This document shows positions 21,547 to 26,041 of a stretch of 42,804 bases of DNA, piece after piece. Made by a program: the position numbers and the translations under genes. Every line of letters begins with the position of its first letter. Positions within the stretch are counted from its first letter, which is position 1. The notes under the pieces are model-generated. The model was given only the letters and a program-made list of their open reading frames with translations. It was not told the origin of the DNA and ran no database searches. This DNA is from Acidimicrobiia bacterium (GTDB lineage Bacteria; Actinomycetota; Acidimicrobiia; Acidimicrobiales; JAHEJN01): positions 1 through 42,804 of the forward strand of contig JAOTZB010000003.1 of assembly GCA_029861625.1 (NCBI GenBank). The letters run 5' to 3'.

Positions 21547-22335
21547 ATGACCATGGCTCGGCCCTCGACCGGTTCTCCTCGTTCGATCGCAGGAAGCACG
21601 GCACTCGTCACCGGCGCCGCCAGCGGCATGGGTCGGGCCACGGCCCTACTGTTCGCCGAGGAAGGAGCCAAGGTCGCGGTCACCGATGTCGACGGTGACA
21701 GTCTCGCGGAGGTCGTCGACGAGATCACGGCCGCCGGAGGCACCGCGATCGGCTGGATTCTCGACGTGCGTGACGGCGACGCTATCAAGCAGGTGGTCGA
21801 CGATGTCGCCGAACGCATGGACGGGCTGGACATCGTGGTCAACAACGCAGGCGTGTCGCTCGTGTCGTCGATCCAGGTCCCCGAGTTCGAGGACAACTGG
21901 GCCACCAGCATCGACGTGTTGCTCACGGCCCAGGCCCGGATCGTACGCGCCGCCCTGCACCACCTCCGCCGCAGCAAAGCGCCACGGATCGTCAACATCT
22001 CGTCGACCGAGGGGTTGGGCGCCACTCCTGGCATCTCGGGCTACACCGCGGCCAAACACGGCGTCATCGGACTGACGAAGTCGCTCGCAGTCGAGCTCGG
22101 ACGCGACGCGATCACCGTGAACGTCGTGTGCCCCGGCCCGATCAACACCGGCATGACCGCCGAGATCCCCGACGCCGACAAGCACGTGTTCGCCACGCGT
22201 CGAACGGCCCTGCGACGCTATGGCGAGCCCGAAGAGGTGGCCCACATGACGCTCAGTCTCTGTCTTCCGGCGGCATCGTTCATCACCGGGTCGGTCGTGG
22301 TCGTCGACGGCGGCTTGACGGCCCGCAACGCGTGA
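21547..22335 (+). CDS. SDR family oxidoreductase
   Basis: TGAASGMG, NNAG, catalytic YTAAK. Confidence 0.95.
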   Translation: MTMARPSTGSPRSIAGSTALVTGAASGMGRATALLFAEEGAKVAVTDVDGDSLAEVVDEITAAGGTAIGWILDVRDGDAIKQVVDDVAERMDGLDIVVNNAGVSLVSSIQVPEFEDNWATSIDVLLTAQARIVRAALHHLRRSKAPRIVNISSTEGLGATPGISGYTAAKHGVIGLTKSLAVELGRDAITVNVVCPGPINTGMTAEIPDADKHVFATRRTALRRYGEPEEVAHMTLSLCLPAASFITGSVVVVDGGLTARNA

Positions 22336-22802
22336 TGGCCGACAACTCCCCGGCCAGATCGTTCAAGACCCCGCCGCGGTGGATGATCCCGTGGATCTCG
22401 AGAGCGCACGTGCGGCTCTACCGACGCACCGACGGCAGAATCGGCGGCAAGCTCGCCGGGATGCGTGGCGTCCTCGTCACCACCACGGGCCGCCGATCCG
22501 GCCACGAGCACACCGTCTGTCTCCCGTACTTCTCCGACGACGGCGACCGCATCGTCGTGGCCAGCTTCGCCGGAGCGCCGACGCACCCGGCGTGGTACGT
22601 GAACATGCTCGCCGACCCCGCTGTCACAGTCCGAGAGCGCGCCCGATCCTTCCCGGCCCGGGCCGAGACCGTCATCGGAGACGACCGCGCCGGCGTGTGG
22701 GAGCGGCTGACCGACCGCTATCCCTGGTATCTCGACTACCAGTCCGGCACCGAGCGGGAGATCCCGCTCGTGCGGCTGGTCGAGGTCGGTGACGATCAAT
22801 AG
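22335..22802 (+). CDS. Deazaflavin (F420)-dependent nitroreductase family protein
   Basis: TTTGRRSG, VASFAGAPTHPAWYVN, YQSGTEREIP. ATG overlaps the SDR stop. Confidence 0.9.
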   Translation: MADNSPARSFKTPPRWMIPWISRAHVRLYRRTDGRIGGKLAGMRGVLVTTTGRRSGHEHTVCLPYFSDDGDRIVVASFAGAPTHPAWYVNMLADPAVTVRERARSFPARAETVIGDDRAGVWERLTDRYPWYLDYQSGTEREIPLVRLVEVGDDQ

Positions 22803-23734
22803 GCGCTGAGATCCCAGATCGAGGGGTCGACGATGTCGGTTCGAGCCGTCCACGGGGTCGCCTGGCTTCGTGCGATGACCGTGAGCTCGTCGAGGCGCGG
22901 GATCACCTCCCGTTCGACGACTGCCGCTCGCTCGTCGCTGTCGACGACGCCGCCCCAGATGGCCCGTCCGGCCATGAATCCGCTCGCGCCGGCACCGCAG
23001 GCCGCGGCGACCTGGTCTCGGAAGACCTCGTAGGACACACCCCACGACAGCACCGCCCACGGCACCGAGATCGCGGCGGTCACGTCTGCGCACGCCGCAT
23101 CCCAGCCGGCCCGGTCGTCGGTTGCAGCCGGGAACGGCATCTTGACGACGTCGGCGCCGAGTGCCGCCACTCGCTCGGCCGAGCCGAGACACACGCGCCG
23201 TCGGTCGGCGGCATCGGCGATGTCGTAGGGCACCGGCTCGACGAACAGCGCCAGATCGTGATCGTGACACTGGTCCACCACTCGTCGGATCAGTTCCTCC
23301 TGAGCAGCCGTCACCGCGCCGCCGTCGGGTCGGTACAGGACGAGCAGCTTCGCGGCGCTGGCGCCGCAACGTCCGGTCTTGGCCACCGACCAGCCGTCGA
23401 GCAGCTCGTTGCCGGTCACGCCGGGCCGACCCAGATACCCCTGGGCCTCCAACGCACACAGGAATCCGACGGACGGATCCAGCGAACCCGAGGCGATTGC
23501 GGGCACGACGCCGTATTCGGGGTCGAGCATGACGCCCGACGGACGATCGCCGACGGCTGCGAGCACATCGAGCTTGAACCGGGTGAGATCGGCTGCTGCC
23601 ACCCCGTCGGGATCGGCCGCGTCGAGCTCGACCCGGAGCGAGTCACGGTGATCGAGCGCGAGGATCGAGAATACGCCGTCGCGCGAGAGCTGCTGGAGGC
23701 CTCGGACCTTTCCCGGGCCGAGCGGGCCCGTCAC
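22796..23734 (-). CDS. LacD/YihT-like class I ketose-phosphate aldolase
   Basis: ALDHRDSL, MLDPEYG, AKLLVLYRPD, Schiff-base ADVVKMPFP, GASGFMAGRAIW. Confidence 0.88.
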   Translation of the reverse strand: MTGPLGPGKVRGLQQLSRDGVFSILALDHRDSLRVELDAADPDGVAAADLTRFKLDVLAAVGDRPSGVMLDPEYGVVPAIASGSLDPSVGFLCALEAQGYLGRPGVTGNELLDGWSVAKTGRCGASAAKLLVLYRPDGGAVTAAQEELIRRVVDQCHDHDLALFVEPVPYDIADAADRRRVCLGSAERVAALGADVVKMPFPAATDDRAGWDAACADVTAAISVPWAVLSWGVSYEVFRDQVAAACGAGASGFMAGRAIWGGVVDSDERAAVVEREVIPRLDELTVIARSQATPWTARTDIVDPSIWDLSAY

Positions 23735-24567
23735 GGCTCAACGACCGGCAGCTCCCAGGCCCCTGCGTCCCAGTCGGCCTCGATCCACGTGTAGGACTGG
23801 TGAAAACACGGCGGCGTGACCCGCTCACCGTCGACCAGCTCGCCCGCCAGGTAGTTCAGGAAGAACAGGTGGGAGCCGGGCGCGGCATTGCTCGAGTGGT
23901 ACCCCTTGGTGACCAACACGACGTCCCCGTCGGCAGCCGTGAAGGACTCATCGAAGGGCTCGTCGACGCGCCAGTTGCGATGCATCGCGAACCCGTCGGC
24001 GGGGTCGGTTCGGAAGTAGTACGTCTCCTCGAGGTACGGGGAGCCGTCGTAGCCGTCGTGGCAGTGTGGAGGCCATCCCGACCACGAGCCGCGCGGCACG
24101 TACACCTCGTACAGGATCAGTCGCTCGGCCGGTAACGGCGGAGCGAGGATGTGGTTCACCTGGCGGCGGGCCGCGCCGCCACCGCGAACCTCGGAACGCA
24201 TCTCGGCGGGTGTGAACAGACGCACGGGGTATCTACCGTCGGCCGGGGCGCTGCCGATCGCGAGCTCGGACGCTTCGTGCGCCACCAGCTCGACCCGTGG
24301 GCCCGGCGGAACGTACAACACGTCGGGCATCTGCTCGAAAACGCTGGTACGACCGAGTCGATGGTCGACGCCGTCGACGGTCGCGGTGACCGAGCCCGAC
24401 AGCGGCACGACCGCCGCCTCCTCACCTGGTCGGGCCAGTGCGTACGATTCGCCCGTCGCGAGACCGACGACCGAGAAGCTGAGGTACTCCCACCCCGCGC
24501 TCGCGGGCGTCACCGCCACCTGCTCGACCGAGCTGCGGTCGGGTGTCAGCTGGTGTGGGCCGCTCAT
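23731..24567 (-). CDS. iolB: 5-deoxy-glucuronate isomerase
   Basis: AGWEYLSF, EVRGGG, WSGWPPHCHD, YLEETYY, KGYH. ATG 24567 overlaps the upstream stop. Confidence 0.9.
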   Translation of the reverse strand: MSGPHQLTPDRSSVEQVAVTPASAGWEYLSFSVVGLATGESYALARPGEEAAVVPLSGSVTATVDGVDHRLGRTSVFEQMPDVLYVPPGPRVELVAHEASELAIGSAPADGRYPVRLFTPAEMRSEVRGGGAARRQVNHILAPPLPAERLILYEVYVPRGSWSGWPPHCHDGYDGSPYLEETYYFRTDPADGFAMHRNWRVDEPFDESFTAADGDVVLVTKGYHSSNAAPGSHLFFLNYLAGELVDGERVTPPCFHQSYTWIEADWDAGAWELPVVEP

Positions 24568-25601
24568 CGCTTGGCCGGGATCCCGTGATACGGCGCGCCC
24601 GCCGCCTCCCATTCGCCGTACAGCTCGAAGAACGCCTCTCCGAACGGATCATCCCCCTGGAGCGGCATCATGGCTCGGCGGATGGTGAAGTCGACCGGCG
24701 CCAGCTCGGCTGCCGCCGCGAAGTGCACGTCGGCCGCGTCGGGACGGCCGGAGCGACGCAACTCGACCGCGATGCGGAACTCGAGTCGCGCGTCGATCTC
24801 GTCGGCCGAGAGGTCGTCGACGGCTGTTCGAGCCGTCTCGGCATCGATGCCGACCACATCGTTGCGAACCCAGTCGCGGATCTCGTTCTTGTGGTCCTCG
24901 GGGTCGATGCCGTGGAACTCGGTGAACATGTCGACGCCGAACGCCACGGAGTTGGGCCGGACGATGTTGTCCTCGGCATCGATCCACATCACCGTCGGCA
25001 CGTTGCTGATCGCATACAGCTCGCTGAGCAAGTGCTGTCGGTCGATCAGGACCGGGTAGGTGATGCCGTCGGCGAACTCACGCACGGCCTCGGCATCGTC
25101 GTCGAACGCGACGGCGACGACCATGAAGTTCGCGTCGGCGAGCTCATCGTGTAGTTCCTGCCACCCGGGCAGGTCGTAGCGGCATCCTCACCAGGTCGAG
25201 AAGGCGACGAGGACCTTCCTCTTGCCGAGCCAGTCGTCGAAGCGGTGCGGGTTCCCGTCGAGGTCGGGCAACTCGAACGGTGCCGCCCTGAGATCGCGCA
25301 GTGCATGGTCGCGGTTCTCGGCCCGCTGACCGAGCGCGATGACTGCATCGTCGAGCGCGGCGAGAACGGGCCGGTCGAGTGCCGACATGGTGGCGAACAG
25401 GTCGACGCGCCCGTCGATCAATACGTCGGTCGGTGCGAGCATCGGCACACAGACCTCGCCCTGACAGAACCCTTCGGGCTTGACCTCCCACCCGGCGGCG
25501 ACGGCGAAGTCGGCCGGGTCGAGCAGGACCCGGTCGCCGTCGACGTGCGCGTCGATGACTCGGGCCTCGTCGTCGATGATGGTCAGTTGCATCGGTTCCA
25601 C
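24564..25601 (-). CDS. Thioredoxin-fold (TlpA/ResA/AhpC-like) selenoprotein, Sec at codon 138 (345 aa)
   Basis: The ORFs 25188-25601 and 24564-25124 are in frame and joined by TGG-TGA-GGA-TGC (W-U-G-C) plus RYDLPGWQELHDELADANF. A hairpin follows the UGA. TACGGT -10 lies 7 nt before GTG 25601. Confidence 0.88.
25157..25173 (-). promoter_or_regulatory. Putative bacterial SECIS element
   Basis: CCUGCC-CGGGU-GGCAGG 6-bp stem with a G-rich loop, starting 14 nt 3' of the UGA (25188-25190). Confidence 0.65.
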
Positions 25602-25636
25602 CGCGCTGACCGTACAAGACGGGTTAGCTTCCCGTC

Positions 25637-26041
25637 ATGGCGACGATCCTCGCCCACATCACCGTGAAGCCCGGCTGCGAGTCCGTGTTCGAGTCGATCG
25701 CGGCGCGCCTGTTCCGCCGAACCCACGACGACGAGACGGCCGTGCGTCGTTACGAGTACTGGCGCGGTGCCGAGCCCCGCACGTACTACACGCTGCTCGC
25801 CTTCGACGACTTCAACGGTTTCCTCGCCCACCAGACGAGCCCGCATCACGAGAACGAGGCTCAGGCCATCCGCGACGCCGTCGAGACGCTGACGTTGGAG
25901 TGGGTCGATCCGATCGTCGGCGCATCGCCGCTGGTGCCCACCGAAGACCGGCCAAGTCCCGACGGGGCCGACGAGCTCGTCCGGCGGTACGCGAATCTGT
26001 ATGCCCCCGACGTTCAGGAGTGGTGGCTCGCCCAGCGGTGA
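25637..26041 (+). CDS. Antibiotic biosynthesis monooxygenase (ABM)-family protein
   Basis: ILAHITVKPG..FE..RYEYWR..HQTSPHH dimeric alpha/beta-barrel pattern. TAGCTT lies 6 nt before the ATG. Confidence 0.8.
   Translation: MATILAHITVKPGCESVFESIAARLFRRTHDDETAVRRYEYWRGAEPRTYYTLLAFDDFNGFLAHQTSPHHENEAQAIRDAVETLTLEWVDPIVGASPLVPTEDRPSPDGADELVRRYANLYAPDVQEWWLAQR

Follow-up and report, generated by a model that had tools for sequence, protein, structure and literature searches.

A predicted selenocysteine codon at the U-G-C site of a thioredoxin-fold protein in an Acidimicrobiia bacterium

On the minus strand of the window (the whole stretch of DNA analysed here, 42,804 nt in length, from an Acidimicrobiia bacterium) the calling of open reading frames with translation table 11 gives two neighbouring ORFs, 25601-25188 (137 aa) and 25124-24564 (186 aa). 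Are these two separate genes, the halves of one broken by a nonsense mutation, or a single gene in which an internal TGA codon is translated? A preliminary description of the locus had proposed the last of these, a selenoprotein hidden by its own codon. From the comparison of sequences it is almost certain that UGA 138 is read as selenocysteine, in a real and intact gene that encodes a protein of 342 aa.

The reading frame and its internal TGA codon

The halves share a frame, as had been claimed. With the TGA at 25188..25190 (minus strand) taken as selenocysteine (U) a single open frame is obtained, with the sequence ...KVLVAFSTW-U-GCRYDLPGWQEL... across the junction. The predicted selenoprotein gene extends over 24564..25592 on the minus strand, starting with ATG at 25592 and ending with the stop codon TGA at 24566-24564. 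Starting from the GTG at 25601 the protein would have 345 aa, and it is from this version that residues are numbered. The limits first given were 24564..25614; the end is unchanged, while the start is likely to be ATG 25592, because the homologues begin there. A Shine–Dalgarno-like GGTGGA, inferred from the sequence, is located directly upstream of the ATG (25597..25602, minus strand). A scan for promoters and terminators found nothing. Contigs from two sequencing runs cross the TGA codon. That from run X2, which may be the source sample, is 444 nt long and has no differences, while that from run X3 (151 nt) has two differences, both outside the codon. No assembly slip is apparent at the TGA as far as can be seen.

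The codon was compared in three samples. A protein search gave 532 matches among 8,000 scored candidates. The best 120 of these share 50-56% identity along the full length, and each of the 120 has W-C-G-C at the site. In 61 related genomes there is a strong match in 24, with TGA at the same codon in each of the 24 loci. A sample of the class comprised 301 genomes, 300 of which have a completeness of 90% or more. With a threshold of E 1e-20, 101 of these genomes gave 135 matches in total, made up of 123 with an internal TGA and 12 without a stop. The exact codon was read in 52 fetched loci (the 24 from the related genomes and 28 new ones from the class sample), where it is TGA in 45 and Cys in seven (TGC or TGT), and nothing else. 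Two further regions checked beyond these both have TGA. The TGA persists at this codon in the 45 loci down to 29% identity, and neither TAA nor TAG was ever seen. A search for Cys-containing homologues aligned at the UGA had been suggested in the preliminary description, and the codon is found to be Cys or TGA, never Trp.

The presence of TGA follows that of the machinery for selenocysteine. In the class sample selA is present in 87 of the 89 TGA genomes compared with one of the 12 Cys (no-stop) genomes, against a background of 207/301, and among the 61 relatives in 23 of the 24 TGA genomes; related genomes are not independent, so these counts, like those of Sec and Cys, show a pattern and do not amount to a test. 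Three genomes, G150 (95% complete), G307 (91%) and G007 (84%), carry the TGA gene and a Cys-type SelD only; selA, selB and tRNA-Sec were looked for in these draft assemblies and none was found. Assembly gaps are the likely explanation, though the machinery has possibly been lost recently.

The genome of the present locus is itself 89.9% complete. That it uses selenocysteine had been inferred, and selA, selB, selD and tRNA-Sec were all found in it above curated cut-offs: selA with 384 bits (cut-off 268), selB with 268 bits (cut-off 242), selD with 370 bits (cut-off 125) and tRNA-Sec with 66.5 bits (gathering score 47). The window contains no sel genes, in agreement with the preliminary description; they are located on contigs C197 (where selA and selB adjoin), C311 and C50, and the present gene on C275. 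selD has one in-frame TGA itself, and SelD at G000:C311:18131-19075 (plus strand, L018) is a selenoprotein with the motif HGAG-U-ACK. A candidate selenoprotein of the glutathione peroxidase type shares contig C50 with tRNA-Sec (G000:C50:5830-6306, plus strand; L082:331-807). It has an active-site TGA (VASK-U-GFTPQY), matches PF00255 with 140 bits and has a hairpin downstream. A generic hairpin scan of the genome for further selenoproteins gave 349 candidates and is noisy. The source names of three homologues (Acidimicrobiales) fit the earlier attribution to an actinobacterium, and Sec machinery in the Acidimicrobiia has already been published for Actinomarina (bioRxiv 10.64898/2026.04.03.716425).

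The hairpin downstream of the codon

The predicted bacterial SECIS hairpin is located at 25157..25173 (minus strand). It is based upon a 6 bp stem, CCUGCC/GGCAGG, with the strands at 25173-25168 and 25162-25157, and a loop CGGGU in which an apical C-G pair closes a GG loop and the U is unpaired. A pair closing a two-base loop of G, next to a flipped U, is what we take to be the feature of the loop when bound by SelB. The spacing of 14 nt given in the preliminary description is that from the codon to the stem; from the codon to the loop it is 20 nt. The bacterial geometry claimed there also holds, in that the 5-nt loop, the 6 bp stem and the 20 nt fit the published bSECIS model, which has a loop of 3-9 nt, a stem of 4-16 bp, G in the first two loop positions and a distance of 16-37 nt from the UGA (PMC13188914). 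In a review G23 and U24 are named as sites in the apical loop (PMC8659212).

The geometry alone says little. The loop-G rule does not discriminate by itself, as six of the seven Cys loci also satisfy it, and a generic bSECIS-like hairpin follows 5,017 of the 86,848 TGA triplets of this GC-rich genome, which makes it a weak signal alone. The pair probability of the stem in the present gene is 0.36 (in a 67-nt context), an alternative pairing being the fold of minimum energy, and a scan of locus L022 with Rfam matched no SECIS family. The hairpin rises above chance because of its conservation and covariation. For the Leu of the stem, CTG is used in 44 of the 45 TGA loci and in 2/7 Cys loci, its share being 35% in the rest of these genes. 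The single TGA locus that lacks CTG carries a compensating change. All six stem pairs are intact in 40/45 TGA loci but in only 2/7 Cys loci.

The apical pair is formed by the third bases of a Pro codon and of the Gly or Val codon that follows, both of which are synonymous positions. These are complementary in 45/45 TGA loci, as C-G in 28, A-U in nine and G-C in eight, where background codon use would give ~36-41%. Shuffling within amino acids gave a mean of 27.4 complementary loci and none of 10,000 shuffles reached 45. With 43 distinct rows 98.3% of the cells are paired, which 0/500 shuffles reach, and the covariation score is 0.187 compared with 0.039 when shuffled, the slid controls not exceeding 0.071. 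All 45 TGA loci have the complete apical motif N-G-(G/U)-N'-U and none of the seven Cys loci does; kinship among the loci causes the shuffle counts to overstate, and the motif was derived from the same sequences. Genome-wide the apical motif follows 37 of the 86,848 TGA triplets, and on the contig of this gene it follows the Sec codon only, being absent after the terminal TGA of the gene. These patterns of codon choice indicate that the hairpin is under selection as RNA, and the covarying apical pair illustrates clearly how a SECIS element can constrain the choice of codons.

Some single loci show individual changes. At L042:1720-1764 a G-C pair of the stem has become C-G by changes on both sides, retaining the pair despite the replacement of Gln by Glu. 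The SECIS is intact alongside the TGA in the three genomes where only a Cys-type SelD was found (G150:C9, L083; G307:C185, L084; G007:C135, L037). The Cys form at G251:C55 (L074) has a decayed hairpin, though that genome retains selA and selB.

In the proposed mechanism the complex of SelB, GTP and Sec-tRNA would bind the hairpin beginning 14 nt downstream, and UGA 138 would be decoded as selenocysteine. The terminal TGA, which has no such hairpin, would end translation. Where the Sec machinery is lacking the gene would persist with Cys, and the hairpin would decay.

Two readings of the locus dispense with selenocysteine. If the TGA were a nonsense mutation or an error of assembly, the locus would be a pseudogene or would encode two proteins. 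Such a reading can draw on the gene callers, which split the gene, on the 77 of the best 150 matches to the N-terminal domain in the public protein set that stop exactly one residue before the Sec codon, and on the three TGA genomes in which no Sec machinery was found. It is nevertheless very improbable: 45 loci have TGA and none TAA or TAG, the contigs from other runs carry the TGA, and a pseudogene is disfavoured because the TGA tracks selA and both halves are conserved. Alternatively a reassigned code or a suppressor tRNA might insert Trp or Cys at the UGA, and the Cys of the homologues at this site would agree with the latter. TGA is however the ordinary stop of the selenoprotein gene and of its neighbours, and the sole tRNA with a UCA anticodon that was found (at default settings) is tRNA-Sec; the co-occurrence of selA and the covariation of the SECIS would moreover have no role. 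This too is given hardly any weight, and even together the readings without selenocysteine are most improbable.

Domain organization and proposed chemistry

With U138 read as selenocysteine the protein comprises three parts. The N-terminal domain of ~100 aa (25302..25592, minus strand) has no match in Pfam (one of 14 members reaches E 0.045) or in the PDB (best E 0.64), and NF041054 is the one NCBIfam model that gives a good match. A fold like the N-terminal part of copper amine oxidase, guessed by eye for this domain, found no support. The domain contains the CxxxxC that had been pointed out in EGFCQGEVCVP. This motif, C46-x4-C51 (25449..25466, minus strand), is invariant in 120/120 proteins, and is present in 51 of the 52 loci (the one miss being truncated by the end of a contig) and in 149 of the best 150 matches to a profile of the domain. 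No clear fusion to another domain was found among these 150 matches, and the 64 of them classed as 'other' resemble, by eye, fragments or frameshifted copies.

The thioredoxin-fold domain follows (residues ~103-215; 24957..25295, minus strand) and is of the AhpC-TSA/Redoxin (TlpA/ResA) type. It matches PF00578 with E 3.6e-14 and 53 bits (cut-off 26), and its nearest solved chains in the PDB are ResA and TlpA. The predicted selenocysteine U138 aligns with the first Cys of WCxxC in ResA/TlpA-type chains, where the preliminary description had placed it. C140, the predicted resolving Cys of U-G-C (25182..25184, minus strand), is invariant and aligns with the second Cys of the ResA-type CxxC; the alignment needs a deletion of one residue, so that the motif is indeed a compressed U-x-C. 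P202 of N-V-P-T (24996..24998, minus strand) is invariant in the 120/120 proteins and in alignment A1, and is presumably at the position of the cis-proline of the thioredoxin fold.

The helical C-terminal extension described earlier is present, and contains a TPR-like helical pair (residues ~262-306; 24684..24818, minus strand). TPR_2 is matched by 46/139 members of the alignment and not by the present protein alone, and the profile matches consensus-TPR chains in the PDB. The best 19-residue window of hydropathy is 1.14, so there is no hydrophobic anchor, and the protein is therefore predicted to be probably cytoplasmic. The likeness to TlpA and ResA noted in the preliminary description thus applies to the fold and does not extend to their membrane anchor.

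The gene is followed by that of an iolB-like 5-deoxy-glucuronate isomerase (23731..24567, minus strand; TIGR04378 with 224 bits, cut-off 205), whose ATG overlaps the stop codon of the selenoprotein gene (ATGA). Isomerase and a tagatose-bisphosphate-aldolase-like gene follow in window 22796-24567 (minus strand) with overlapping stops and starts, and because of these overlaps the three genes probably form one operon. Genes for a short-chain dehydrogenase and an F420H2-dependent quinone reductase (21547-22802) are on the plus strand of the window, and a divergent gene for an ABM-family monooxygenase (25637-26041, plus strand) begins 45 nt from the ATG of the selenoprotein. Within ~1.5 kb no cluster of neighbours is common to more than six of the 52 loci, and this locus is absent from all of the 25 largest neighbour clusters. 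As the neighbours are unconserved, the operon with the iolB-like and aldolase-like genes offers no clue to function and no pointer to a substrate.

The fold and the motif, from which function is inferred, point to a soluble cytoplasmic thiol-disulfide oxidoreductase, acting as a reductase or isomerase, and this is the role that we consider probable. The selenolate of U138 would attack a disulfide of a client protein, and C140 would resolve the mixed bond. The U-G-C selenenyl-sulfide ring then formed would be small and strained and is expected to be relatively oxidizing, so that isomerase or repair chemistry would be favoured over strong reduction. For a Cys-Gly-Cys peptide E0' is -0.167 V, close to the value for protein disulfide isomerase, and the peptide acts as a catalyst in the rearrangement of disulfides (bioRxiv 10.64898/2026.01.27.701630), this potential being that of a free peptide and not of the present fold. 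The C46-x4-C51 dithiol might recharge the active site, either of its own chain or of the partner in a dimer; we put this forward tentatively. It would itself be reduced by the thioredoxin or mycothiol system of the cell. The TPR-like tail could, by analogy with the TPR part of CnoX, hold a client or a partner, a possibility of about the same standing. That all these features combine in a cytoplasmic Sec-dependent protein-repair enzyme with a built-in relay, in which the TPR holds the client, the U-G-C ring acts like protein disulfide isomerase and CxxxxC recharges it, is speculative and on balance unlikely. If true, this would provide the first demonstration of a natural thioredoxin fold operating with a U-x-C ring, in a protein that roughly one in three of the genomes sampled from the class possess.

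Two other functions can be envisaged for the same selenoprotein. Selenols react fast with peroxides, and U138 might reduce H2O2 or organic hydroperoxides, with the selenenic acid resolved by C140 or by the N-terminal dithiol. The best Pfam match is to AhpC-TSA, a weak match to GSHPx is found in 101/139 members of the alignment, and the family was called Prx-like in the 2008 survey. Against a peroxidase, the site aligns with the WCxxC oxidoreductases and not with PxxxTxxC, the site motif of the peroxiredoxins; the PrxQ model gives only 14 bits, and the genome already encodes the candidate Sec glutathione peroxidase. We regard such an activity as unlikely. Binding or reduction of a soft metal or metalloid (Hg, As, Cu) by U-G-C and CxxxxC would make use of four invariant chalcogen ligands, and has a precedent in the closely spaced Sec/Cys motifs of the SAO and HgcA families, for which the binding of heavy metals has been proposed (bioRxiv 10.1101/2022.07.06.499078). 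Disulfide exchange is however better suited by the invariant cis-Pro position and the register of CxxC, and no metal-handling gene was recognised among the shared neighbours, whose annotation was unsystematic; a metal-related role seems quite improbable. The oxidoreductase remains the preferred reading. The natural Cys versions allow the UxC/CxC site and the N-terminal dithiol to be assayed without Sec expression.

Relation to known families

By its sequence the protein is a member of the UGC-containing Prx-like/TlpA family, predicted since 2008; it is thus a new member and not a new system. Table 2 of Zhang and Gladyshev 2008 (GOS) lists 'Prx-like (UGC-containing)' with pfam00578, the motif UGC and 46 selenoproteins, and the entry for the family in a listing of 2026 gives it as predicted and not experimentally verified. 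The PF00578 domain, the UGC motif with one Sec and the existence of Cys homologues are common to the published entries and the present protein. Read JCVI_READ_1110824 in Dataset S1 of 2008 has the stretches AFSSWUGC, AISNVP and GDPFGEEFF as in this clade, and an N-terminal CxxxxC domain is also found in MDE0950781.1, the representative of 2025; resemblance to published members was judged by eye on the thioredoxin and C-terminal motifs, without an alignment score. The three-domain anatomy and the SECIS do not appear in the passages that describe the family. No experimental study of it was found in the literature searched, which left most subscription journals uncovered, and the main text and one supplement of BSepDB do not mention the terms for the family.

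The preliminary description had suggested a 'ResA-like WAxxUGC' family that was known and functionally uncharacterized. Such a family exists and is uncharacterized, but the present protein scores 194 bits against the NCBIfam model NF041054 (WAxxUGC_long), below its cut-off of 300, and belongs instead to a sister clade. All 11 genomic proteins of this clade (the present one and ten clade-mates) score 192-249 and six of six Cys homologues 187-223, whereas 12/12 proteins of the distant clade score 399-577. The N-terminal and thioredoxin domains are homologous to those of the NF041054 family, and the position of the Sec codon and the SECIS are identical; the motif here is F-S-T-W-U-G-C and not W-A-x-x-U-G-C, and the C-terminal part is unlike. 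In a quick tree of the 52 loci the two clades are split with an SH-aLRT of 100. With a midpoint root, from which no direction is claimed, there are four changes between Sec and Cys, at least two of which are forced by well-supported branches. Because many genomes of the class hold one copy from each clade, distinct roles are suggested for the two. Members of both clades lie in tandem at G010:C142:1431-3588 (L032), each with TGA.

For this genome the result repairs a split gene and is mainly a correction of annotation. The clade is common (matches of more than 200 bits occur in 68/301 genomes of the class sample, with TGA in 57 of these) yet falls under the cut-off of NF041054, so that a pipeline using that model would leave the gene split. 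A second model, for this clade, would mend such annotations.

The protein shares its fold and the register of the attacking residue with ResA, TlpA and StoA, which are membrane-anchored extracytoplasmic dithiol reductases. It differs from them in having U-G-C in place of CxxC, no membrane anchor, and extra N- and C-terminal domains, and family models of the ResA/TlpA type score far below their cut-offs (58 against 170, 37 against 230 and 34 against 210 bits). The chaperedoxin CnoX/YbbN, in its published description, likewise has a thioredoxin-fold domain followed by TPR-like helices and is cytoplasmic. CnoX-specific models matched neither the present protein nor members of the alignment. The comparison with CnoX is thus an analogy only, the present protein being set apart by a TlpA-type domain, by its predicted selenocysteine and by the additional N-terminal dithiol domain.
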